Source of the DNA: Vicinamibacterales bacterium
GTDB lineage: Bacteria > Acidobacteriota > Vicinamibacteria > Vicinamibacterales > UBA2999
Assembly (NCBI GenBank): GCA_035649395.1
Contig: DASRJR010000174.1
Span: forward strand, 9,353-73,352
Direction: 5' to 3'
DNA length: 64,000 bases
Shown: piece by piece, positions 4,662 to 47,990 of the stretch
How positions within the stretch are numbered: the stretch's first letter is position 1
How the letters are laid out: each line of letters begins with the position of its first letter
Made by a program: the position numbers and the translations under genes
The notes under the pieces: generated by a model
Told to the model about the DNA's origin: nothing
Seen by the model: only the letters and a program-made list of their open reading frames with translations
The model's database searches: none

Positions 4662-7631
4662 TCAAACCTGACTGGTCTCGCCTGACCGGAAGTGCTGTAC
4701 CGCCAAGGCCGGACGATCGTCCGCGACGGCAGGGAACGATAGGATGAACCGAGTGCCCTTCCCAACCACGCTGTCGCAATCGACGACGCCGCCGTGCTCT
4801 CGCACGATGCCATACGTGATCGACAGTCCGAGGCCCGTGCCCTGACCGATCGCCTTTGTCGTGAAGAACGGATCGTAGATGCGGGCCAGATACTCGTTGG
4901 GGATGCCTGAACCTGTGTCTGCAACCTCCGCGATGGCGCGACTGCCTTGCGCCCGAGTGGCGACGGAGAGCCAGCCGCCTTTCGGCATCGCATCGCGGGC
5001 ATTGAGGAACAGGTTGAGGAATACCTGCTGTAATTTGTGTTCCTGAGCGAGGACCACGACCGGCGTCTCGCTCAAGTCGCGCCGTACGCGCACGCGCTGC
5101 GTCTCGAACTGGTGTTCGAGCAGCGCCAGCACATCGACAATGACGAGGTTCACGTCGACGATCGACCGCTCGGAGGAGGTCGGCCGTGAAAGCGTCAGGA
5201 GGCCGTTGACAATCTTCGCGGCCCGGAACGTCTGCCGTTCGATCTTCTCCAGCAACTGCGTCCGAGGATCCTTGGGATCGGCACCCTCGAGCAGCATCTG
5301 CGTGAAGCTGGAGATGCCGGTCAACGGCGTGTTGACCTCGTGAGCCACGCCCGCGGCAAGCAGACCGATCGACGCCATCTTCTCGGAGATCCGCAGATGT
5401 TCTTCCAGCTGCATCCGTGCGGTCACGTCTTCGATGATCACAATCGTGCCTGCAGTCGTGACGTCCTCCCCCTGCGGGCGACGCAGCGGCATGACGGCGA
5501 CGTTGGCGATCAGCGCAATGCCGGGGCGGGATCCGCGCGGAGACAGCGGAACGCGCGACAGCGTGGCTCCATCGGGTGTGTCTCGCCTGGCCGCGCGAAC
5601 CGCCTCGACGAACGGCGCATCGAAGAGGTCATCGAACAGACGCCCGGCGGCCTCCGCATGCGGGATGCCGTAGAGCTGTTCCAGTGTGTGGTTCCACCGC
5701 ACGACGCGTTCGTCACGGTCGATCACCAGCAGCCCATCGTCGAGTGATTCGAGGATGTTCTCGTTGAAGGCGCGCATCCGATCGAGCTCGACGGCCTTCA
5801 CGTGCAGCTGGCGATAGAGCCGCGCATTCTCGAGGGCGGTCGCCATCTGCCCGGCAACGGCGGCAAGCAGGGCCATGTCCTCGCTGCTCAACGGGTCCCC
5901 GGAATTCTTCCGTCCGAGCGCGAGCACGGCGATCGTGCCCTCTTTCGCCACGCAGGGCACGAAGTAGTACAGCCCGGCATCGCGCCAGAACTCGATCTCC
6001 TCGGCCGCAAACCGGCCGACCGCCGTCGGGTCGTCGAGCGTGACGTTGTGGCCTTCCACCAGTCGGGCGCCGATCGCTGAGCGCTTCGGCAGTCCGGGCG
6101 GGTGGCTGCTGCCGAATCCCAGCGCCCACATCGAGCCGAAGTGCGGCGCCGCTTCGTCCTCGAGCAGGAGCGCCATTCGATCAACCAACAGCGTCTCGAC
6201 GACTCTCGACACCAGCCGCTCGGCCAGGCGATTCAGATCGAGATCGCTGTTCAAGTCGCGCGCAAACCCCAGCAAGGCACGCCGGTAGTCGTAGCGGTCA
6301 CGATAGAACGCGCGGTCGACCAGGTTCTGAACAAACGTCTTCAGGGGCGGCGTCAGCAGGACAGCCACCAGCGTGGCGAGAAATGCCAGCACCCAATCGT
6401 TCGCCGCGCTTCCCTTCAGCACGACGCGCTGCACGGCCTCGAGCAGAATCGCGTAGATCGCGACCATCGCCGCGAGCGCCGCGGCATATACCAGCGCGCG
6501 TTTGACGATGACCTCGATGTCGAGCAGGCGGTATCGCACGATCGCCGACGCATACGTCAGCGGGATCAGACTCAGCGGAATCGCCGACAATTCCATCGGC
6601 AGCGACGGCTCGACACCCAGCACGTACGGGAGCGCGTAACCGAGGGCGAACGTGCCGGCGCCAAGCGCCGTGCCCCACGCGATCCAGCGGAGCTGGCGAC
6701 GAGCGGTGATCGTGCGCACGTGCGACAGCGCACGAATCAACGTCACGAAACCGCTGATCAGGCAGGCCGCCAGATAGAGCAGCTCGAGCCGATCCAGCAG
6801 CGACACGATCGAGACGAACAGCCGCGGATCATTGGCGCTCTGCGCGACGGCCATGATGCGCGTCAGGCCCATCGCCACAGCGGGCAGATAGAACGCAACA
6901 ATGACCGAGCGTCCGAGCACTCCCTCCATCCATCGACGCGGGCGCTCGGGGAAGACCAGCGTGAAATGCAGGAAGAGCGGCGGGAGTGCAAGGATCGAGA
7001 CGGCGTCGGACCAGTAGAACACCCAATCGAGCCGATCGAGACGGCCGCTGAACGAGAAGGTGATGACACCGAAGAACGCGACCGCCACCCAGAAGAAGTG
7101 CAGGGTTGCCGGATCGCGTGGCCGACGCAGACGAACCGCACCGCCGACGAGCAGTGTGAAGATGCCCACCGCGGCGAGCACGAAGTACAGTGCACCGGGT
7201 CCGTTCGGCAACGGCGCGACACGCACATCGACGACCTCGCGCGTGCCAAGCCTGAGCATCGTGTAACGAAGCATCTGATCTCGACGGGCCGAATGCAGGA
7301 ACGCCAGGACATCAGACGCGCTTTGAACGGGCCGATCGTCGATCGCGATCAGCACGTCACCCGGTTTGAGACCGGTCGTTGCCGCGGGGCCGCCGGGCGC
7401 GATATCGGCGACAACGACGCCGGCGTCGCTCTCGCTCCACAGCACTCCGTCTTCGAACTCGTGCCACGTCGCACGCGTAGCGACGTTGGCCGCGCCGAGG
7501 CAGAGCAGGACCGCCACAACGACCAGCGGCACCGCTGGTCTCGTCCACCGGCCCCACATGGCCGGGATTCGCGCACCAATCCAATGACTAGAACGTCTCA
7601 TCCAATGAAATGGAGTGCAAAACAGCGTCAA
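4662..7631 (-). CDS. sensor histidine kinase: TM - periplasmic PDZ - polytopic membrane region - GAF - PAS - HisKA - HATPase
   Basis: PDZ-like segment VVVADIAPGGPAATTGLKPGDVLIAIDDRPVQSASDVLAFL lies between two hydrophobic helices. Multiple TM helices follow. GAF-like region (LALGRKNSGDPLSSEDMALLAAVAGQMATALENARLY). PAS (ILESLDDGLLVIDRDERVVRWN). H-box GVAHEVNTPL. N/G boxes FLNARDAM, DTGSGIP, GTGLGLSI. The start could be a later Met (7601 or 7559). Confidence 0.9.
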   Translation of the reverse strand: MTLFCTPFHWMRRSSHWIGARIPAMWGRWTRPAVPLVVVAVLLCLGAANVATRATWHEFEDGVLWSESDAGVVVADIAPGGPAATTGLKPGDVLIAIDDRPVQSASDVLAFLHSARRDQMLRYTMLRLGTREVVDVRVAPLPNGPGALYFVLAAVGIFTLLVGGAVRLRRPRDPATLHFFWVAVAFFGVITFSFSGRLDRLDWVFYWSDAVSILALPPLFLHFTLVFPERPRRWMEGVLGRSVIVAFYLPAVAMGLTRIMAVAQSANDPRLFVSIVSLLDRLELLYLAACLISGFVTLIRALSHVRTITARRQLRWIAWGTALGAGTFALGYALPYVLGVEPSLPMELSAIPLSLIPLTYASAIVRYRLLDIEVIVKRALVYAAALAAMVAIYAILLEAVQRVVLKGSAANDWVLAFLATLVAVLLTPPLKTFVQNLVDRAFYRDRYDYRRALLGFARDLNSDLDLNRLAERLVSRVVETLLVDRMALLLEDEAAPHFGSMWALGFGSSHPPGLPKRSAIGARLVEGHNVTLDDPTAVGRFAAEEIEFWRDAGLYYFVPCVAKEGTIAVLALGRKNSGDPLSSEDMALLAAVAGQMATALENARLYRQLHVKAVELDRMRAFNENILESLDDGLLVIDRDERVVRWNHTLEQLYGIPHAEAAGRLFDDLFDAPFVEAVRAARRDTPDGATLSRVPLSPRGSRPGIALIANVAVMPLRRPQGEDVTTAGTIVIIEDVTARMQLEEHLRISEKMASIGLLAAGVAHEVNTPLTGISSFTQMLLEGADPKDPRTQLLEKIERQTFRAAKIVNGLLTLSRPTSSERSIVDVNLVIVDVLALLEHQFETQRVRVRRDLSETPVVVLAQEHKLQQVFLNLFLNARDAMPKGGWLSVATRAQGSRAIAEVADTGSGIPNEYLARIYDPFFTTKAIGQGTGLGLSITYGIVREHGGVVDCDSVVGKGTRFILSFPAVADDRPALAVQHFRSGETSQV

Positions 7632-7694
7632 AAAATGGGGAGCATCGCTCCCCGTGTTCTCCTCTTCCGCACGGCCCGCTCTCGCGAGCGGACG

Positions 7695-9572
7695 TCAGAA
7701 CTTGACCGTCACACCTCCGAGCACACGCTTCGGCGGCCGAACGACCAACGCTTCGTCGTAGATCGTCGTTTCACCCAACTCTTCTTTGAACAGGTTGCTG
7801 ACCGCTACGAGCATCTCCCACTGCGCGTTCGTGAAATCGAGGAACGGCAGCGCCTGATTGACCTGGACGTCGAAGCGCGTTCGCGCCGTCGCCAGGGCCG
7901 GGATCGCATCCGCCGCCGCAAGCGCGGCGTTCAACTTGTAAATCACGAAGACGCGCGTCGACGTCGGCGCGACGACACTCTCCACGGATGCCGTCAGATC
8001 GTGCACGCGATCTTCGGTCCGCAGAACGGACCGCTCCAGCGCGGCCAACGCGTCGAAGTCGGGTGAGCGGCGATCCCACACGGCATCGGCTTGTGCGTAA
8101 TCAACAGTCGCCCGCAGGCGATCACTGACCGAACGGCTGACGGTGACGCCCCATCCGCGCGCGCCGTACGCGCCCGCCGATCCGACCTCGTAATGTCCGA
8201 TGCCCGACGCCGACGGGATGTCCGCAAGGCCCACACCGAACACCGTGACCAGCTGATTCTCGACGCGCTGATCGAATACGCGAACACCGACGACCACGTC
8301 GCCGGGCCAGGTGCGTTCGACGCCGACTTCAACCTGATCGTGGCGTTCGGGGTGGAACATGCCGTGCGCAACCGGCGCGAATGTCCGCTCGGGAGGCAGC
8401 CACAGACCGATGCTGGACGGCAGGAACTCTTCGGCGCCCGGCGCGACCTGCCGTCTCGACATCGACGCACGCAGCGTCAGGCTGTCACGCCGCAGCGGCT
8501 GCACGGCGATGCTGGCACGCGGGCTCCAGAGCCCAGGATCGCTCAGGTAGTCGTACCGCGAGTACTTCGCCCCGTAGCTCACACGAAGCGGACGTGCGAT
8601 CTGCCAGCTGTCGAACGCATACATCGAACCGACGACCCGGCTGCCGTCGCGTATCGCCGCCAGGGCGTCGCCGTTGCCGCCGAGATACCGCTGCATGCCG
8701 TACGACACGCCGGCTTCGTAGGCGTGGACGGACGGCGTGTGCCGCGTGTAGGACCCGGCCAGAATCCACGAGGCCAGATCGCCCTGCGTCACGGTGCCAC
8801 GCATCGTCCAGTCGCCCTGCGCACCCGGCGCCTCGAGCGACACGAACGCGACGCTCTTCGGCAGATCCACGTTCATCGAGAACAGATCCTGCGGTCGATC
8901 GAACGAGGTGGTCGTCAGCAGGTGAAACTGGCCGCTCATCGACAGATCGTCGAACAACGACGACGCCAACCGCGCAGAGGAGCCGACGGCGTGACTCAAA
9001 CCGCCGATCGGACCGCCGAAGAACGATTCATGCTGTCCAAGGTCCGCGATCGCCTGGTCGGCGTCCTTGAGCACGCTTCGTCTGGCGTGGCGCAGCCGCC
9101 ACGCGACCTCGTCATGGGCGTGATCGCCGTCGGAGCGCTCGACGGGTTCAACCGGTGCCACTCCGGCGGCAACCACCGGGGGAGTCGACGACGCCTCGGC
9201 GCGGCGCGTCAGCTCGATCGTCGACGTATTGCGACCATCGGGCGTCACCTGAACGATGCGCCCGCGCGAGGGGACGTATTCCTGAAGATGGGCGCGAACG
9301 AGATAGGGTCCGGCGGGGAGATCGCGGAAGGTAAACCGTCCGTCGCGATCGGAAACCGCGAAGGCCGAGGTCGACCCGAGCGCTGAGACGATCGCGCCCG
9401 CGAGCGGCTGGCCGCCATCGTCCTGAACGAGACCGCGAAAATCGCACAGCCGCGCCGCGGCCACATGGGTGACCGCGGACACGGGCGGCACGGCCGCCCG
9501 CTGTGCGAATGCGGGCGAGACCGTCGCGCACACCACGACTCCGACACCACACGAGAGGAGGACTCGGATCAT
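7695..9572 (-). CDS. outer-membrane beta-barrel protein with N-terminal carboxypeptidase-regulatory-like domain
   Basis: Signal peptide (CATVSPAFAQ). CarboxypepD_reg-like motif GLVQDDGGQPLAGAIVSALGSTSAFAVSDRDGRFTFRDLPAGPYLVRA. Long beta-rich remainder ending in a terminal aromatic residue (GGVTVKF). Confidence 0.65.
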   Translation of the reverse strand: MIRVLLSCGVGVVVCATVSPAFAQRAAVPPVSAVTHVAAARLCDFRGLVQDDGGQPLAGAIVSALGSTSAFAVSDRDGRFTFRDLPAGPYLVRAHLQEYVPSRGRIVQVTPDGRNTSTIELTRRAEASSTPPVVAAGVAPVEPVERSDGDHAHDEVAWRLRHARRSVLKDADQAIADLGQHESFFGGPIGGLSHAVGSSARLASSLFDDLSMSGQFHLLTTTSFDRPQDLFSMNVDLPKSVAFVSLEAPGAQGDWTMRGTVTQGDLASWILAGSYTRHTPSVHAYEAGVSYGMQRYLGGNGDALAAIRDGSRVVGSMYAFDSWQIARPLRVSYGAKYSRYDYLSDPGLWSPRASIAVQPLRRDSLTLRASMSRRQVAPGAEEFLPSSIGLWLPPERTFAPVAHGMFHPERHDQVEVGVERTWPGDVVVGVRVFDQRVENQLVTVFGVGLADIPSASGIGHYEVGSAGAYGARGWGVTVSRSVSDRLRATVDYAQADAVWDRRSPDFDALAALERSVLRTEDRVHDLTASVESVVAPTSTRVFVIYKLNAALAAADAIPALATARTRFDVQVNQALPFLDFTNAQWEMLVAVSNLFKEELGETTIYDEALVVRPPKRVLGGVTVKF

Positions 9573-36939: not shown

Positions 36940-37695
36940 CTAGCGTTTCAGTCTATCCGTCCATATCGCAGCCGCCTCCGTCAGATCGACGAACAGGGCA
37001 ATGCTCTTGACCCAATCGCTCGAGACGCGGCCGTCATGACCGGGGGCGCCACCAAAATTCTGGAAATTGAAACCGGCGGGAAAGTTCAGCAAGCCGAATC
37101 TCGCGATGGCGGCATCAACTTTCCAGCTCCTCGGCAGCCGCAAACGAAAGTCGAAGCGTATCGGTTCCAGTAGGGTCCCGGTCTCGGGCTCAAAGCCTTC
37201 CGAGCTTAACCAATACACGCCGGCTCCGAACCCGTAGTCGAGGCGAAAGAGACCTTTGTCGACGACCGGAAACATCACCGCCGGCTCCAGCGTCGTCAGG
37301 TGGATTCTCTTGCCGTTCGCGAAGTCAGGGATCTCGCCTCGCGCAGCTTGATCTTCGTACTTCTTCGTACGCAGGAACCGCGCGCCGAGGTCGAACATGA
37401 CGCGCTCTCGCTCTTTTTGAGCATCGCCCCTGCTCCTGTTGCCCCTGGCCACCCGACACACCGACAGGATCGCGCCAACTGGGCCCGACGTCCGGATTTC
37501 GGTCCTCTCCTGTTTGGTCGGGGTGGTTTGGTCCTCGGTCCGGACAACGCAGAAAAGGCGCAGCTGGATGTCCCAGCCGTAGAAAGGACCCGGACCGCTG
37601 GCGTGCTCGACGCCATCCCACCACGCAAACGCCTCGGACGCACAGACCGCTTGAAGAATCATCGTACAGACGATGATCGTGCTGACGCGGCGCAT
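36940..37695 (-). CDS. secreted hypothetical protein (possible small beta-barrel)
   Basis: Signal peptide MRRVSTIIVCTMILQAVCASEAFA and alternating-pattern C-terminal half. Starts 75 nt downstream of the Ser/Thr kinase gene on the same strand. Confidence 0.5.
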   Translation of the reverse strand: MRRVSTIIVCTMILQAVCASEAFAWWDGVEHASGPGPFYGWDIQLRLFCVVRTEDQTTPTKQERTEIRTSGPVGAILSVCRVARGNRSRGDAQKERERVMFDLGARFLRTKKYEDQAARGEIPDFANGKRIHLTTLEPAVMFPVVDKGLFRLDYGFGAGVYWLSSEGFEPETGTLLEPIRFDFRLRLPRSWKVDAAIARFGLLNFPAGFNFQNFGGAPGHDGRVSSDWVKSIALFVDLTEAAAIWTDRLKR

Positions 37696-37770: not shown

Positions 37771-39657
37771 TCACTTCGAGCGTTCGAAATGCTTGAATAT
37801 GCTTTCCCGGATACCCAGGGGAACGATCGCAGGGTCATTCTTCGCGACGATGCGATTGCGTGGGGGCTGAAGCGTTGCGCAAAACAGCAAATCCTGACTC
37901 GCGCGCTCGCCGACGATGTAGCAACGATGTCCCTTCCATGTCACTGTGTCGAACACGTCGTTGAAGTACAACAACCTGTACGGAAAGTGGAGAAGTGTCA
38001 GCGCGCAGACCGTCGCCGCAGCCCCTGCAGCGACGACCCCCCAATGAATTGTCTGGCCCCTTCTTACGAGCTTCCAAACTGGATACCAGACAACGACGGT
38101 TACAATCGCGACAACCGCGAAGACTTGCCGGTAATGATTGTGATCAAACACGAAATCGTGAGAGAGCCGCCAGAGCTGGTCATCCGTGTCCATCTGCAGC
38201 GGCACGGCAAGCAGGACCACCAGCAAGGGTGCGAGAGACCAACAGGCCCAGACGACGGCGGCGGCGGAGACGATCAGCGCACAGGACGCGAGCACCGGCG
38301 CCTCGTCGAGTCGGAACCGATGAGCCGCTGACCGAAGCCATCGTCGAACGGAGTCGTCGATCGTTCGCACATGTGATGAAACCGCCACGGCCACACGACG
38401 GGCCACTACGAGCGCTGATAGCGGTACGAGACCCATCAGCAGAATCACCAAGGTCCCGACGTTGGCCTTTTGTCCCCAAACGAACCAATCCAACGGCGTT
38501 TCGTTCATGAACCCGGAACGCGCCAACATCAGATTGAACCATCCCGACGCCAGAAAGCCGATCGCAGTAACCCCAATGAGCAGGACAGCGACTGCAATGA
38601 ATGGCCTCGCGATCGCCCACAGCCACGGATGCGGGCCGACTTTGAGTGCACTGAGCGCCGCGAGCAGCTCGCTTGGGTTCGTGTAGCGTTCCTGCGGATC
38701 GAGCGCAATCGCACGCTCGACGACCTGCATGAAAGCGACCGGTAAATCGGGCCGCCGCTCGCTCAGCCAGCGATGCTGCCGTTTCGCGTGCGCCTGGTGC
38801 AATTCGTCGATCGTGCGGGCATCGACTGGATACTGTCCCGACACGAGGAAGTAGAGCAGGACGCCCAGGCTGTAGACGTCACTCGACGCGGAGGCGGGCT
38901 CACCTTCGAGGACCTCAGGCGCCATGTACAGCGGCGTGCCGGCCCGATCGCCGAACGTCCCCGGACGATCCGCCATTCGCCCGGTGCCGAAGTCCATCAG
39001 AACGATGCGGCCCCTCGCGTCGCGCATCACGTTCTTGGCCTTCACGTCGCGATGGATGTAGCCGGCGCCATGCACCGCCGCCAGCGCGCGGCACAGATCC
39101 TCGCCGATCCCGATCGCCTCGCGTGCGCTGAGCGTGCCGCGCAGGATGACTTCGTCGAGCGTCTGTCCTTCGACGAACTCCATGCACAACGCCGCCCGAT
39201 CCTCGTGCGCCTCGACGCCAAACACCTGCACGACGTTGTTGTGACGGATGCGCGCGAGCGCGCGCCCTTCCTTGAGCAGCTTGTCCTTGAGACGGGTGTC
39301 GCCGAACCGGACGTGCAGGATCTTCATCGCGACGTCGCGTTCCAGGTCGGAGTCCCAGGCCCGGTACACGGCGCCGTAGCTGCCCGCACCGACGCGATTC
39401 GCCAGCCGGTACTTCCCCCACACGTCGGGCACGCCGGCGCTGAGCGGGGGCAGCGGCATGCTGACCGCCGTCGGCATCTCGGTCATCAGATTCAGCGCGT
39501 CGACACGATGCAGGTTCGCGACGTCGCTGATGATGCGCAGGCAGTTCAGGAAGCGGTTGTCGCCCGCCGCCACGGTGCCGCCGTGAATGGCACCCCAGTC
39601 GACGGACATCCCGTCCGCGATGTGCTCGATGACTTCGTCGAGGACCGCTTCAGACAT
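37771..39657 (-). CDS. Ser/Thr protein kinase with a ~55-aa N-terminal module and a ~300-aa polytopic membrane C-terminal domain
   Basis: Gly-loop GAGSYGAVY, VAMKIL lysine, catalytic loop HRDVKAKN, DFG, APE. About six hydrophobic helices follow residue ~335. Confidence 0.9.
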   Translation of the reverse strand: MSEAVLDEVIEHIADGMSVDWGAIHGGTVAAGDNRFLNCLRIISDVANLHRVDALNLMTEMPTAVSMPLPPLSAGVPDVWGKYRLANRVGAGSYGAVYRAWDSDLERDVAMKILHVRFGDTRLKDKLLKEGRALARIRHNNVVQVFGVEAHEDRAALCMEFVEGQTLDEVILRGTLSAREAIGIGEDLCRALAAVHGAGYIHRDVKAKNVMRDARGRIVLMDFGTGRMADRPGTFGDRAGTPLYMAPEVLEGEPASASSDVYSLGVLLYFLVSGQYPVDARTIDELHQAHAKRQHRWLSERRPDLPVAFMQVVERAIALDPQERYTNPSELLAALSALKVGPHPWLWAIARPFIAVAVLLIGVTAIGFLASGWFNLMLARSGFMNETPLDWFVWGQKANVGTLVILLMGLVPLSALVVARRVAVAVSSHVRTIDDSVRRWLRSAAHRFRLDEAPVLASCALIVSAAAVVWACWSLAPLLVVLLAVPLQMDTDDQLWRLSHDFVFDHNHYRQVFAVVAIVTVVVWYPVWKLVRRGQTIHWGVVAAGAAATVCALTLLHFPYRLLYFNDVFDTVTWKGHRCYIVGERASQDLLFCATLQPPRNRIVAKNDPAIVPLGIRESIFKHFERSK

Positions 39658-40102
39658 GACCCATCTCGATCGCCAGCCGCTTGAGCGCGCGCGCGACGGC
39701 TCGCCGCGCGGCGATCGCTGCCTCGCGCGTCGTGCGGTAGTGATACCCGAGCACGGCCGCCAGATCGGTATAGCTGCTCAACAGCTCGAGCCGGCCAATC
39801 ACCGCGTGGCGTTCGGCGCGCTCCAGCTGTCGCAACGCGGCCTGATACTTCGCGGCCTGCGCCTCACCGACGACGACTTCGACCGTGGGCTCCTCGGTCG
39901 CATTCGCGGGCGGCTCCGAGGGCACGGGGATGTAGGTGGAATACGCGCTCAGCCGATAGAAGTTGGCGACGTCGTGGATGATTCGCAGATCGGCCGCCCA
40001 GGCGCTCTTGCCTTCTGCGGTCGCATGGCGCTCGACGGTGCGCCAGTCCACCGGTAAGCCGTCGACGATGTTCTCGATGGCCTGGTCGACGGCTTCAGAC
40101 AC
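39650..40102 (-). CDS. chimeric small protein: kinase-N-terminal-like module fused to a sigma70 region-4-like HTH
   Basis: Residues 1-53 align with kinase residues 1-54 (MSEAV, I-DG, VDW, LRII-DVAN). Residues ~78-150 align with the C-terminal region 4 of the upstream ECF sigma (IGRLE, Y-DLA-VLG, ALK-LA-EM). The GTG start overlaps the sigma stop (GTGTCTGA) and its stop overlaps the kinase start (ATGTCTGA). Confidence 0.7.
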   Translation of the reverse strand: MSEAVDQAIENIVDGLPVDWRTVERHATAEGKSAWAADLRIIHDVANFYRLSAYSTYIPVPSEPPANATEEPTVEVVVGEAQAAKYQAALRQLERAERHAVIGRLELLSSYTDLAAVLGYHYRTTREAAIAARRAVARALKRLAIEMGHV

Positions 40103-40811
40103 CGCGCATCTCCCTCGCCAGATGCTTCAACGCACGTGTCACGGCCATGCGCGCGGCATCCGCCGAGGGTCTGCCGAGCACGACGGCCAAGTCCTGATAG
40201 CTGTAGCCCATTTCCAGCCGGCCGATGATCGCTTCCTGCTCGTCCTCGCTGAGTCGTTCGAGCGCCCGGTCATACAGTTCGGCGTTCTCCTCGCCGATCA
40301 GCGCGTCGAGCGGGGACGTCGCTTCGTCTTTGAGCTCCTCGGAGAGTGCCGTTTGCATCGGGCGGCGACGGGTCATGCGGATGATGTCGCGAATCCGATT
40401 CATGACCGCCCTCCGCAGATACGCCTGCAGCGCGCCCTGGTGGCGCGGTTCGAACGTGCCCAGGTTGCGCATCGCGCTGATGACGGCGTCCTGAACGATA
40501 TCGGCCGTCTCGTTCATGCCGCGTGAGGCTGGCGGCAGCCGGCCGTGCGCCCACCGCTGCAGCGGCGGAAGACAGCGCTCGAGCAGGCGATCGAGCGCCT
40601 CGCCGTCGCCCGCCTTGGCGAGCTGCAGCAGTTCGACTGTGGTTTCCGGGTCGAGTGGCGGCTCGCTGGTGGAGCTGCCGAGGGACCCGTAGTCGGGTGT
40701 CATATCGGGACCATCCACTGGATGGTCGCGCCCGCATGATACCTTCGCGGGCGGTACGTCCGGAACGGGGGTCGGCAGCGTCTTTCGGCGGACGAGTGGG
40801 ACGAGTGCCAT
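40095..40811 (-). CDS. ECF-type RNA polymerase sigma factor (Sigma70_ECF / TIGR02999-like)
   Basis: ELLQLAKAGDGEALDRLLERCLPPLQRWAHGRL, DIVQDAVISAM, LQAYLRRAVMNRIRDIIR (region 2), and region 4 LSEDEQEAIIGRLEMGYSYQDLAVVLGRPSADAARMAVTRALKHLA. The true start may be Met37 (ATG at 40701-40703). Confidence 0.85.
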   Translation of the reverse strand: MALVPLVRRKTLPTPVPDVPPAKVSCGRDHPVDGPDMTPDYGSLGSSTSEPPLDPETTVELLQLAKAGDGEALDRLLERCLPPLQRWAHGRLPPASRGMNETADIVQDAVISAMRNLGTFEPRHQGALQAYLRRAVMNRIRDIIRMTRRRPMQTALSEELKDEATSPLDALIGEENAELYDRALERLSEDEQEAIIGRLEMGYSYQDLAVVLGRPSADAARMAVTRALKHLAREMRGV

Positions 40812-40892
40812 CGTAGTGGCCCTGATACCTCGGGCTCACTGACTACAACGTCAGTCTTCGCCAGTCCGAACGTAGGGGGAATCGCGAGAAAA

Positions 40893-41744
40893 TTACCGGG
40901 GATCCGGACGGGTGGGCCACTGCTGCTTCACCAATTCCCACTCGGCGCGCAGGGACGCCACCGCTTCCTGCGGGTCCCGCGCCATCAGACGGGAACGCTC
41001 GGGAATCAGCGCCTGCTGCACCAGACGTTCGAGGTCGGCGCGAAGGCTCTCGGCCGTCTCGGGCGAGAGCGTCGAGACCACCCAGGCGGCGACCGCGGCG
41101 TCCCAGGCGGCCTCGAGGTCGCCCGCACCCCGAGCGGCGACCGCCAGCCAGTAGTTGGCCACACTGCTCCCGGGGTCCTGACGCCGCTCCTCGCTCATTC
41201 TGGCGGCAATGCGGTCGAACAGCGCCCGGCGTCGATCCGCCGGCCGCGTCTGTGCCTCCCGATCCAGGGCGGTCGCCCACCAATCGAGGAGCAGCAGGCG
41301 ATCCTTTGCCGACAACAGCGAGGCCTGCGTGAGCGCGGTGTCGAACAGATCGGCGGCCGCGCCGTACTTCTCGCCGTGGTAGAGCGAGAGGCCGAGGCCG
41401 ATGAACAATTCGACGCGATCGCGCGGCATCAGCGCGGCCAGATGGATCGCCGTGAAGGCTTCCCGCGCCGCTTCCAGATCCTTCGCATCGGCGCGCTGAC
41501 GATAGAGCTCGATGTACGAGCGGCCGATGACGAGCGCCGACGGGTCGGCCCATCCGGCTTGGCGTCGAGCCACCGCAGCCGCGTCGATCGCGCCCTCGTA
41601 GTTGCCCTCGTTGTACAACGCCCGCGCTTTGGCCAGCGCAGGAGGCTCGGCGGCACGCGCAGTGCCGGTCACCGCACAGAGCAGCAACACCACGACGCCG
41701 CTTGCCCTCAGCCGTCCGGTCGCCATGCGGGCATCGTAGCGCAT
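40893..41744 (-). CDS. secreted TPR-like repeat protein
   Basis: Signal peptide (VVVLLLCAVTGTARA), then helical repeats such as LAKARALYNEGNYEGAIDAA. Confidence 0.55.
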   Translation of the reverse strand: MRYDARMATGRLRASGVVVLLLCAVTGTARAAEPPALAKARALYNEGNYEGAIDAAAVARRQAGWADPSALVIGRSYIELYRQRADAKDLEAAREAFTAIHLAALMPRDRVELFIGLGLSLYHGEKYGAAADLFDTALTQASLLSAKDRLLLLDWWATALDREAQTRPADRRRALFDRIAARMSEERRQDPGSSVANYWLAVAARGAGDLEAAWDAAVAAWVVSTLSPETAESLRADLERLVQQALIPERSRLMARDPQEAVASLRAEWELVKQQWPTRPDPR

Positions 41745-45600: not shown

Positions 45601-46503
45601 TCAGCTGGCGCGCAGGTGCGGCAACGAATCGGCTTTCGGGACGCCACACACCTGCCGCAACGCTGTTTGCAACGCGAGTGTCGTCACTTCGTCGCGTGCG
45701 CCCGGCGCTTGGATGTCGCGGAAGACCTCGGCGGCCTCGACGGCCGAGGCGAAAACGACACGGCCGTGGAGCTGCAACGTATCCTGCAACCAGCTTCGGA
45801 GTCGCGCATTCTTCATCGCATCGTCGGACAACGTGACCTCGCTGACGACGTCGGAGGTGCCGCGCGGATACTCGTCTCGACGCAGCGTCCGGCGCACGGC
45901 GATGGCCAAGACGGCAGCGCCCAGCTGTGTGACATCGCCGCGCTGATCGAGGCGCGGCAGGCTCGCCGACGAAGGCAGCGCGAGCCCGAACTCGCGCCAC
46001 AGCGCTTCCCGGTTCCGTTCGAGTGCCTGCAATGCCTCCGCAAAGACCGCGCCGGTGAGAATGGTCGCCCCGTCGCGCTGGATGATGATGTGCGCCGGCG
46101 TCAACGCTCCGTGCGATCGCGTGGTGAGGCGCGCGTGGATCGCCGCGACCGCGTCGATGACCGATCTCGCCATGGCGAGCAGTTCGTCGTTCGAGAGCGT
46201 CAGCGTCTTGAATTCGAGCGCCGCGAGCACGTCTGACAGCGGAATGCCGTCTGGAATCGCGCTGACGATTGCGAGTGACTCACCGGAGCGCTCAATCCGG
46301 AGGACACGGCCATATGCGTCCGCGTACGCGCTCGTCAGATGCGCCGCTCGGGCTCGGATCGCTTGCTCCGCTGGCCACGACGACAGCGACGGGGCCAACT
46401 CCAGACGCTCGACCAGACCAAGTCGCGGGTCGTCGACGATTCGGCGGACGCCGAACCCATCCTCGCGGAGTGGTGTGTTCTGGTCGTTGTCTTGGAGAAC
46501 CAT
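45601..46503 (-). CDS. kinase-like protein lacking catalytic residues (putative pseudokinase)
   Basis: C-lobe-like order: hinge LAIVSAIPDGIPLSDVL; HGALTPAH in place of HRDLKPxN; ILTGAVFA in place of KLxDFGxA; DVTQLGAAVLAI in place of DVYSLGVxLYE. No Gly-loop or VAIK lysine seen. Start placed at ATG 46501-46503 (Met68 of the track ORF). Confidence 0.45.
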   Translation of the reverse strand: MVLQDNDQNTPLREDGFGVRRIVDDPRLGLVERLELAPSLSSWPAEQAIRARAAHLTSAYADAYGRVLRIERSGESLAIVSAIPDGIPLSDVLAALEFKTLTLSNDELLAMARSVIDAVAAIHARLTTRSHGALTPAHIIIQRDGATILTGAVFAEALQALERNREALWREFGLALPSSASLPRLDQRGDVTQLGAAVLAIAVRRTLRRDEYPRGTSDVVSEVTLSDDAMKNARLRSWLQDTLQLHGRVVFASAVEAAEVFRDIQAPGARDEVTTLALQTALRQVCGVPKADSLPHLRAS

Positions 46504-46691
46504 GGAAATCTGTGAACGGTTCACCACACACTTGCAACGAGCGCGCCTGCCCAACCTTTGGAGAAAAGATGAAAATCCGCCGCGTTCCGGAACGTCGGGG
46601 AGTCGGGCCCTCGGACGGCTTACAGATCGGGGATCAATTTCGCGCGACTTGTAATCGGTCGTGACCAGGGCTGTCCCTGGCCTGGGGCACA

Positions 46692-47990
46692 ATGGGCACA
46701 TCAATGGAATTGGTGATCCTAGTCGTGGTAGCGGCTGCCGCGCTCATGGGGTATCTGCTGGCGCGTGCCCTCGCGGCGCGACAAGTGGCCGAGACACGCG
46801 AATCGAGTGCGGCCGAGCTGGCAGCGGCGCGTCAGGACGTGAAGTGGCTGCGGGAGGAAGTCGACCGTCAGAAACAGGCGCTCGGGACGGCACAGGCCCT
46901 CATCGACCGCGCCGAACAGAAACTGCGCGACAGCTTTCAGGCACTCGCCGCCGAGGCCCTCAAGGACAACCGGGCTTCGTTTTTCGATCTGGCGAAGACG
47001 TCGTTCGAGCGATATCGCCAGCCGATTACGGACACTTTGAGCCGGCTCGATGAACGCCTGGGCCAAGCCGAGCACGAACGCATCGAAGCCTACTCGCGGC
47101 TGTCGGAACAGGTGATGGCGCTGGGCGCCAGCGCGAACACGCTGTCGCGCGCACTCCGCACGCCGGCGGTCCGCGGCCGATGGGGGGAAATGCAGCTGCG
47201 CCGGGTCATCGAGATCGCGGGCATGCTGCACCATTGCGATTTCGACGAACAGCGATCGCTGTACGCCGAAACCGGCCGGCTGCGGCCCGATGTGATCGTG
47301 CATCTTCCAGGTGGCAAGCAGATCGTCGTCGATGCGAAAGCGCCACTCGAGGCGTTTCTCGATGCCCAGGAGGCTGCCGACGATGAAACGCGCGTCGCTC
47401 GGCTCCACGCGCACGCACGACAAGTGCGCGAGCATATGGACAAACTCGGCGGCAAGGCCTATTGGGAGCAGCTGGGGAACTCGCCGGAAATGGTGGTGAT
47501 GTTCCTGCCGGGCGAGACGCTGTTCAGCGCCGCGCTGCAGCACGATCTCACGCTGATCGAGTATGGGCTTCAGCAGCGCGTCCTGCTGGCGAGCCCCATC
47601 ACGTTGATCGCGCTGCTGACCACCGTGGCCCATGCATGGCGGCAGGACGCCTTGACCGACAACTATCGTGAGGTCGCGCGGCTTGGGAAAGACCTCTACG
47701 AGCGCCTGGCGATCTTCACCGAGCACTTCGACGAGATGCGCAAGAAGCTGGATGGCGCGGTGCAGGCGTACAACAAGGCCGCCGGATCATTCGAAAGCCG
47801 CGTGCTTGTCAGCGCGCGCCGGTTGAAGGAGCTGGATGTGACGACGGCCGGCGAGCTGCCGCTCGGCGAACCGATCGATACCGTGCCGCGCGTCCTCAGG
47901 CAGGCGGGCCTGATGGGCATCCCGGACGACGCAACGGCCGACGGCGACATTTCCGATCAGAGCGAAATCGCCGTGCAGAAGGTTCCGTAA
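46692..47990 (+). CDS. rmuC: DNA recombination protein RmuC
   Basis: N-terminal TM, a long coiled coil, then the RmuC nuclease-like core ([48 protein letters not shown]). Confidence 0.9.

Follow-up and report, generated by a model that had tools for sequence, protein, structure and literature searches.

The systems that come closest to the locus considered herein are the ECF43 pairs, EcfP-PknT of Vibrio parahaemolyticus and EcfK-PknS of Xanthomonas citri, in which a sigma factor of the extracytoplasmic function (ECF) type is encoded beside a transmembrane Ser/Thr kinase and no anti-sigma gene is present. This group is characterized by the loss of the acidic DAED motif of sigma region 2.2 (sigma-2.2), in whose place S/Q-T-T-A with a phospho-Thr is found (PMC8999054, PMC13147305). 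How a Hanks-type kinase recognizes and controls its partner ECF sigma is still an open question, and the N-terminal 81 residues of PknS, for which three to four helices and a flexible linker are predicted, are structurally unresolved and have been given no function (PMC13147305). The window analysed here, a stretch of 64,000 nucleotides (nt) from contig DASRJR010000174.1 (GenBank assembly GCA_035649395.1) of a Vicinamibacterales bacterium, harbors three open reading frames (ORFs) in series on the minus strand, which encode an ECF-type sigma, a protein of 150 residues and a Hanks-type Ser/Thr kinase, and each pair of neighbours shares an 8-nt overlap. The middle protein, termed the chimera in the following, joins a copy of the N-terminal module of the kinase (N-module) to a copy of sigma region 4 (sigma-4), and the locus can be regarded as a natural experiment on these two domains. 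To judge from the repeats that it still carries and from its substitution pattern, the chimera is almost certainly a selected gene of boundary-duplication origin, which would make it a clean case of a new gene formed when the boundary of two genes with overlapping reading frames was duplicated.

40095..40811, minus strand: ECF-type sigma, 238 aa as the longest ORF, probably 202 aa from the ATG at 40703 (Pfam Sigma70_r2 3e-08, Sigma70_r4_2 5.6e-07)
40095..40102, minus strand: junction 1, 8-nt overlap GTGTCTGA, with the GTG start of the chimera inside the last codons and stop of sigma
39938..40102, minus strand: chimera residues 1-55, acidic three-helix copy of the N-module (N-module hidden Markov model (HMM) 1.4e-32; helices 3-13, 20-29 and 33-55 in the AlphaFold2 (AF2) model, predicted local distance difference test (pLDDT) 78-87)
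39896..39937, minus strand: chimera residues 56-69, variable, acidic, disordered linker at the duplication joint (variable alignment columns; AF2 pLDDT < 50)
39653..39895, minus strand: chimera residues 70-150, conserved EEPTVE segment followed by a basic sigma-4-like helix-turn-helix (HTH) (BLASTP to sigma 168-238)
39728..39745, minus strand: 18-nt (6-codon, YHYRTT) chimera-specific insertion in the HTH turn, seen in alignments
39650..39657, minus strand: junction 2, 8-nt overlap ATGTCTGA, with the ATG of the kinase inside the last codons and stop of the chimera
37771..39657, minus strand: Hanks-type Ser/Thr kinase, 628 aa (Pfam Pkinase 4.7e-49 over residues 83-328)

Within the sigma gene, sigma-2 lies at 40362-40586 and sigma-4 at 40098-40295, and the best NCBIfam model of the protein is TIGR02984, below its cut-off. 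The kinase gene encodes the N-module at 39490-39657 (HMM 4.1e-27) and the catalytic domain at 38674-39411, and a hydropathy scan gave several hydrophobic segments after the latter (residues ~343-560). The locus shares with the ECF43 pairs the placement of an ECF sigma beside a transmembrane Ser/Thr kinase in the absence of an anti-sigma gene, a helical region ahead of the catalytic domain, a Thr in sigma-2.2 and a Ser/Thr in the linker between sigma-2 and sigma-4, whereas no third gene of the chimera kind has been described for them. The N-terminal region of PknS and the N-module are likened by description, and PknS was absent from the matches when the PDB was searched with the N-module profile and with the whole kinase (top hits, E <= 1e-30). 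Moreover, the sigma does not belong to ECF43, since its sigma-2.2 motif, ETAD in the window and (D/E)TxD as the family consensus, keeps both acidic residues instead of being STTA or QTTA, with the Thr found in every family sequence examined. In its gene context, with adjacent and translationally coupled genes and no anti-sigma gene, the operon corresponds to the ECF/Hanks-kinase systems, and it resembles the modules described in PMC7826278, PMC8999054 and PMC13147305.

The PhyR-NepR-EcfG system of Alphaproteobacteria, in which a degenerate sigma-domain paralogue fused to a signalling module regulates an ECF sigma (PMC8999054), may by analogy be regarded as the nearest conceptual precedent for the chimera. 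Both proteins carry a sigma-domain paralogue that is unable to act as a sigma and is joined to a signalling module. However, PhyR combines sigma-2-like and sigma-4-like parts with a receiver domain and targets the anti-sigma NepR, while the chimera holds sigma-4 only together with the kinase N-module, is encoded in an operon without an anti-sigma gene and has diverged in charge from the sigma that it would mimic. It is therefore not counted among the PhyR-like sigma mimics, given the lack of a receiver domain and of a NepR-like or other anti-sigma gene in the operon, nor among the ECF (group 4) sigmas, as no Sigma70_r2 or ECF profile match was obtained. A literature search turned up no account of a paralogue that consists of sigma-4 alone and is joined to the N-terminal module of a kinase. 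The chimera is a variant within known ECF sigma/kinase signalling, whose architecture and reality as a gene are established and for which a function can be proposed from sequence.

The ORF of the chimera (39650-40102, minus strand) comprises 150 codons plus stop and begins with GTG. Its two-part nature had been proposed by eye in the preliminary description, according to which roughly half of residues 1-53 are identical to the kinase N-terminus and the C-terminus resembles that of the upstream sigma. Counting gave 26 identical positions of 53 for the former, and BLASTP aligned chimera residues 1-68 with kinase residues 1-74 at 41% identity (E 2e-12). For the latter, chimera residues 74-150 matched sigma residues 168-238 at 49% identity (38/77, E 4e-16), so that the proposed combination of an N-module and sigma-4 without sigma-2 stood up to the search. 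When the two halves of the chimera were each permuted 1000 times, a comparison that the same description had suggested, z was 20.4 for the N-terminal part against the kinase and 22.5 for the C-terminal part against sigma, while the crossed controls (N half against sigma, C half against the kinase) gave z < 0. Residues 1-55 are homologous to the kinase N-terminus and not to sigma-2. Lacking sigma-2, the chimera cannot be a sigma factor, and lacking a catalytic domain, it is not a kinase.

The C-terminal part is assigned to region 4 on the basis of its homology to the neighbouring sigma, a protein that matches Sigma70_r4_2, because Pfam provides no match for the part itself. NCBIfam returned weak matches to sigma C-termini far below the cut-offs (best, SigJ, 2e-4), and a PDB profile search gave E 0.47-0.75 to ECF sigma-4; an HMM of sigma-4 built from relatives matched the chimera at about 1e-33. 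The alignments indicate that this part is descended from a bona fide sigma region 4. In the AF2 model, it is predicted to form helices at residues 80-91, 95-107, 111-118 and 125-146; the model of the whole chimera (pLDDT 65) had no significant Foldseek match in the PDB. The insertion in the HTH turn (YHYRxT) is present in all chimera orthologues and missing from sigma-4 of every related sigma aligned with them.

A search of a large protein collection revealed full-length homologues of the chimera (142-154 aa) in 36 clusters at 59-96% identity, and those with names come from metagenome-assembled genomes of Vicinamibacterales. Conservation in their alignment is concentrated in two blocks, between which residues ~54-69 vary. 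The identical chimera protein was found on 11 independent contigs from different samples and is therefore not an assembly artefact. A scan of metagenome contigs gave three chimera loci and four more that matched via sigma region 4 only, and one carrier was found among 185,579 GTDB species representatives. Wherever the contigs of the divergent loci L011-L017 and L021-L023 extend over it, the sigma-chimera-kinase core is preserved together with both overlaps; the GTGnnTGA of junction 1 is kept in 8/8 loci, and junction 2 is invariant in 8/8. A programmed frameshift fusing sigma to the chimera or the chimera to the kinase was considered and rejected, as no slippery sequence occurs and junction 1 varies in the two bases that separate GTG from TGA. 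No terminator-like site was found between the three genes, upstream of which a conserved ECF-like promoter element was recognized, and the chimera is probably transcribed together with both neighbours and, as its overlapping junctions suggest, coupled to them in translation.

Selection on the gene was estimated as the ratio of nonsynonymous to synonymous substitution (dN/dS) by the Nei-Gojobori method from the five closest pairs, with dS of 0.5-1.25 over the whole chimera. The whole chimera gave 0.12-0.17, its N-module 0.08-0.29, its sigma-4 part 0.05-0.10, and its linker higher or saturated values; the ratio was 0.02-0.10 for sigma and about 0.1 for the kinase domain. Two of the outcomes that the preliminary description had named as fatal to its proposal, insignificant similarities and a ratio near 1, did not occur. 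A non-functional by-product of duplication, whether a pseudogene, an over-called ORF or an assembly artefact, might be suspected from the lack of a Pfam match, the GTG start, and the restriction to one clade with a single locus among the GTDB representatives. Nevertheless, this explanation is effectively refuted by the intact ORF, whose length and junctions are retained across all 36 homologue clusters even at 59% identity, by the low ratio at that depth of dS, and by the identical sequence on 11 independent contigs and the domain-wise conservation around a variable linker; in addition, the divergence of the orthologues excludes contaminated copies of a single sequence. The substitution pattern indicates that the chimera is a real protein-coding gene under selection, and the conserved junctions indicate that it is kept in translational coupling between sigma and kinase throughout the radiation of one clade of the Vicinamibacterales, an order of soil Acidobacteria.

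The two gene boundaries are mutual copies, as is seen in ...GAGATGCGCGGTGTCTGAAGC... and ...GAGATGGGTCATGTCTGAAGC..., and one repeat unit comprises the C-terminus of sigma with the N-terminus of the chimera, the other the C-terminus of the chimera with the N-terminus of the kinase. These units are 60.4% identical over 391 aligned nt, with differences that include the 18-nt chimera insertion and a 3-nt indel. From the chimera start to the kinase start there are 445 nt, which is 1 mod 3 and matches the +1 frame step from sigma to kinase. A repeat of this length cancels the +1 frame offset of the parents, and the first copy of the N-module therefore reads in-frame into the second copy of sigma-4. 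Both breakpoints fall into flexible linkers, one between sigma-2 and sigma-4 and the other between the N-module and the kinase domain. The repeat structure indicates that the chimera arose by tandem duplication of a segment of ~445 nt that reaches from the end of sigma into the first part of the kinase; an equivalent route with the same outcome would be unequal recombination between two sigma|kinase units.

In relatives without the chimera, the sigma gene is followed directly by the kinase with the N-module. The two genes overlap by 11 nt in L018, L020 and the P0111 contig and by 8 nt in L019, which is the same overlap type as junction 2, whereas they simply overlap in L025 and are adjacent with a short gap in L026. 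On this comparison, the sigma|kinase order is the ancestral arrangement. The paralogous modules are ~46-47% identical within and between genomes alike, and orthologues share 50-97% identity. In neighbour-joining trees, the modules of the chimera form a single clade, and the branching order within it agrees with that of the orthologues of sigma and kinase. Since the paralogous modules group by type rather than by genome and the topologies match, one old duplication without gene conversion accounts for them. Gene conversion or recent repeated duplication was rejected on the same grounds, paralogues of one genome being no closer to each other than those of different genomes (about 46%).

One further fusion was encountered in P0129 (176 aa), a match of the N-module profile, where an N-module and the first beta-strands of the kinase domain switch abruptly to the C-terminal HTH half of a sigma-4 (sigma-4 HMM E 4e-17), and the end of this protein resembles the end of a sigma gene. 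It could reflect a recurrent kinase-N::sigma-C recombination or a chimera of metagenome assembly.

A word-indexed search with the 80-aa kinase N-terminus gave one match, which marks the sensitivity limit of that tool, and the N-module profile was instead searched exhaustively against 1.84 billion representative proteins, with the result of 126 cluster representatives at E <= 1e-3. The module is N-terminal in every long protein examined among these clusters, and all nine long proteins that were scanned with Pfam continue with a Hanks kinase domain; where a C-terminal domain could be identified in them, it is TPR, PD40/beta-propeller or Laminin_G. Its motif reads ADGxPVDW ... LRxIxxVAxLHR. The cluster P0008, which represents the chimera, matched the profile at E 5.5e-22, a value to be read with the chimera sequences being part of the profile. 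The AF2 model of the module (pLDDT 89, predicted template modelling score 0.70) contains helices at residues 3-14, 21-25 and 31-57. The modules of 29 kinases are all acidic, with a mean net charge of -6.5 over about 56 residues, and the N-module of the chimera carries -3 to -10 across orthologues. Pfam holds no model for it. Its identity as a class I anti-sigma domain was not supported, as one chance-level match to RseA_N (E 0.088) was obtained among the 29 and none to zf-HC2, and Foldseek found no anti-sigma structure with the pLDDT-89 model. An ECF sigma gene stands directly upstream of the N-module kinase in every context examined, and the HMM detected no further copies in the 64-kb window. 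Profile matches and gene contexts identify the N-module as a widespread domain without annotation and as a marker of sigma-coupled kinases, many of them of the receptor type; this domain, the boundary-duplication origin with the ancestral gene order of relatives, and the charge divergence described below go beyond the preliminary description. Two tandem N-modules were seen in P0071 (106 aa) and P0105 (149 aa), the latter followed by the start of a kinase domain, from which it follows that the module can also be duplicated on its own.

The two copies of sigma-4 have diverged in charge, which was measured as the net charge from the conserved IGE/VGE to the C-terminus. Sigma of chimera-bearing genomes carries -3 to -7 in this region (8 loci, 9 clusters; -4 in the window), and the chimera carries +4 to +7 in 8/8 orthologues, so that the copies are opposite in net charge in every chimera-bearing genome. 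Sigmas of chimera-less loci range from -2 to +3 (n=9), and the nearest sigma clusters outside the clade (<= 71% identity) are centred on 0 with a range of -4 to +4 (n=104), while no difference between groups was found in the charge of sigma-2. Between the clade and the outgroup, the identity is 62.5% for sigma-4 and 73.2% for sigma-2, compared with 81% for both in outgroup pairs, which gives an identity ratio of sigma-4 to sigma-2 of 0.85 on the branch to the clade versus 1.00. The sigma of the clade lost Arg/Lys and gained Glu/Asp, chiefly in the first helix of region 4, and the chimera retained Arg/Lys that sigma lost and added further basic residues. These comparisons indicate that both copies of sigma-4 changed after the duplication.

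Owing to the opposite charge, the chimera is not a faithful decoy or copy of the neighbouring sigma-4, and the plain decoy or mimic idea of the preliminary description appears weakened by it as well as by the conserved 6-residue insertion in the HTH turn. The long-kept fusion of a kinase N-module to sigma region 4, together with the charge-opposed copies of the latter, points to a functional link between N-module and sigma-4, and the chimera is most likely an extra regulator of the sigma/kinase pair.

A role directed at the kinase is an unlikely alternative, in which the chimera would take up substrate-docking or phospho-acceptor capacity of the kinase as a phospho-sink or threshold setter, or would bridge kinase and sigma, and would thereby tune sigma phosphorylation. 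It would profit from the co-production with the kinase that translational coupling implies and from the retained segment before sigma-4, where the family sigmas have an invariant (S/T)-P and the chimera a conserved EEPT with the invariant Thr73. In the ECF43 pair PknS/EcfK, the linker between sigma-2 and sigma-4 contains functional phosphosites (PMC13147305). On the other hand, the alignment of EEPT with SP leaves an uncertainty of one residue in the register, the chimera lacks sigma-2.2, where the phospho-sites of kinase-activated ECFs are best established, and the charge inversion speaks against faithful substrate mimicry.

The residues kept since the duplication bear on another alternative, in which -35 recognition would have moved to the chimera as a sigma-4 acting in trans, docking on the beta-flap of RNA polymerase beside or instead of the degenerate, acidic sigma-4 of sigma. 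Split sigmas are known, such as SigO-RsoA of Bacillus subtilis, where the products of two adjacent genes divide the sigma functions between them; here, by contrast, sigma is complete with sigma-2 and sigma-4, and the chimera duplicates sigma-4 without supplying a missing part. The basic character of the chimera, the ancestral Arg that sigma has lost (RY to LY, DRE to EQE, ARK to ARM), and the unusually acidic sigma-4 of sigma would suit such a transfer. Residues lost by sigma and yet kept in the chimera are mainly Arg/Lys. The retention of ancestral states is nevertheless not asymmetric, the chimera alone keeping the ancestral residue at 4 and sigma alone at 6 positions of sigma-4, and the sigma-4 of sigma is still highly conserved and matches Sigma70_r4_2, which leaves this alternative highly improbable. 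By the same tally, the case for simple subfunctionalisation is not decisive; the corresponding tally in the N-module favours the parent.

Tentatively, and at somewhat less than even confidence, we infer that the chimera is a kinase-linked regulator acting at the sigma-4/-35 step. On this proposal, it would act at the sigma-4 step of the promoters of this sigma, where its basic HTH could bind -35-type DNA (GTTCGG-like boxes) or the surface used by the ancestral sigma-4, and from there might compete with or assist the sigma-holoenzyme. The acidic N-module would tie the chimera to the kinase; it might cover the basic HTH in cis, or it might pair with the N-terminal region of the kinase, and kinase activation might then alter the level of sigma-dependent transcription. 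In sigma-70, region 1.1, an acidic helical domain at the N-terminus, keeps the free factor from binding DNA. This region shares with the chimera the arrangement of a small acidic helical domain, a flexible linker and a basic DNA-binding sigma domain, an analogy that renders the model of masking in cis plausible, although no relationship of sequence or fold between region 1.1 and the N-module was found. As indirect indications of DNA contacts, the chimera is basic in net charge over its sigma-4 part, keeps the Arg of IGR and the Tyr of SY, which align with R149 and Y156 of sigmaE, and has T, R, I and R at the sigmaE positions T169, R171, F175 and R178 in the ungapped register (contact positions from PMC6713349).

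Several findings weigh against this proposal. The Pfam Sigma70_r4/r4_2 match that had been predicted for the chimera did not appear even at E <= 1, AF2 models the first two helices of its sigma-4-like domain with low confidence, and the N-module had no significant match in the PDB either by profile sequence search or by Foldseek. The mapping of sigmaE contacts is uncertain because the recognition helix of the whole sigma family is non-canonical, and canonical DNA binding could be changed or lost through the six extra residues in the HTH turn. Furthermore, the sigma-4 of sigma itself evolves under strong purifying selection (dN/dS 0.02-0.11), and its job was therefore not simply handed to the chimera. 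Finally, net charge is a crude proxy, and the opposite charges would fit a protein-protein heterodimer equally well.

Such a heterodimer is the core of a protein-level partner switch without DNA, in which the basic domain of the chimera would bind the acidic sigma-4 in the manner of an anti-sigma or chaperone, or else the acidic N-module of the kinase, and the competition among acidic partners would set whether sigma is free, by analogy with PhyR/NepR/EcfG. The reciprocal charge divergence of the sigma-4 copies is as expected of co-evolving or insulated paralogous interfaces, the N-modules are all acidic, and the operon contains no recognisable anti-sigma gene. Kinase-linked ECF groups are typically without anti-sigma factors (PMC7826278), and a precedent exists for a sigma-domain paralogue that acts by mimicry (PMC8999054). 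Against it stand the lack of any similarity between the N-module and class I anti-sigma domains and, as DNA binding would predict, the conservation of the HTH and of several basic residues in the chimera. We know of no sigma-4 domains that pair with each other. A partner switch of this kind is consequently considered possible but rather unlikely.

On a further, quite improbable reading, the N-module would be a hitherto unrecognised, DNA-mimicking, anti-sigma-like domain that binds sigma-4, and the chimera a self-masked sigma-4 that is released by the kinase and reads -35 in trans. If this were true, the Hanks kinases of the large N-module family would both hold and phosphorylate their ECF sigma, an interaction that the Vicinamibacterales clade would have brought into a single polypeptide, and the chimera would serve a sigma whose own sigma-4 became acidic and thereby insulated, the whole being a three-component sigma.

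The following elements were recognized around the sigma gene, along with the next gene downstream of the kinase.

40844..40871, minus strand: ECF-type promoter-like element GTTCGG-N15-CGTTGTA, upstream of the sigma gene (conservation across aligned upstream regions)
40733..40768, minus strand: second conserved box CCGTTCCnG...GGTATCATnCG, inside the long-ORF version of sigma (core GGTATCAT invariant, wobble positions included, in 9 loci)
36940..37695, minus strand: co-directional 251-aa protein with a signal-peptide-like N-terminus (gene at the same position in every locus extending that far)

Both promoter-like boxes are largely conserved upstream in most chimera-bearing loci, with L013 being divergent there. 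The pattern GTTCGG-N15-CGTTGTA occurs once in the 64-kb window against 0 expected, and no further candidate regulon promoter with this motif was found elsewhere in it. From its position and conservation, the element at 40844-40871 is the probable promoter of the operon. As the core GGTATCAT of the second box is invariant at the nucleotide level and several sigma homologues are annotated from a downstream Met (MTPDYGS), the true start of sigma is probably the ATG at 40703, and the 36-residue "N-terminal extension" then probably represents a 5' leader or promoter. Within sigma, candidate phospho-acceptors are the Thr of (D/E)TxD at residues 101-104 (about 40500-40511), which is distinct from the STTA of ECF43, and an (S/T)-P at residues 165-167 (about 40311-40319), which precedes sigma-4 in 16 aligned sigmas.

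The longer contigs share a gene order, in which DUF1015, an aminotransferase, a poly(A) polymerase (opposite strand) and a protein of 270-320 aa precede sigma, and the chimera, the kinase, a protein of ~240-250 aa and polA (opposite strand) follow it. In L015, a DDE transposase (DUF772/DDE_Tnp_1, 7153-8453) takes the place of polA, and the sigma-chimera-kinase block is untouched. No anti-sigma domain matches were found among the operon genes and neighbours. The 251-aa protein at 36940-37695 has no Pfam match, and a weak homologue of it is present in the chimera-less L018. Upstream, a co-directional 283-aa protein (40893-41744, minus strand) has a signal-peptide-like N-terminus, a conserved position and weak TPR-like matches, and these two genes may belong to the same envelope-sensing module. 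Farther upstream lies an ORF of 367 aa (45601-46704, minus strand) that has no Pfam match and whose middle part, by eye, loosely resembles a degenerate protein-kinase fold.

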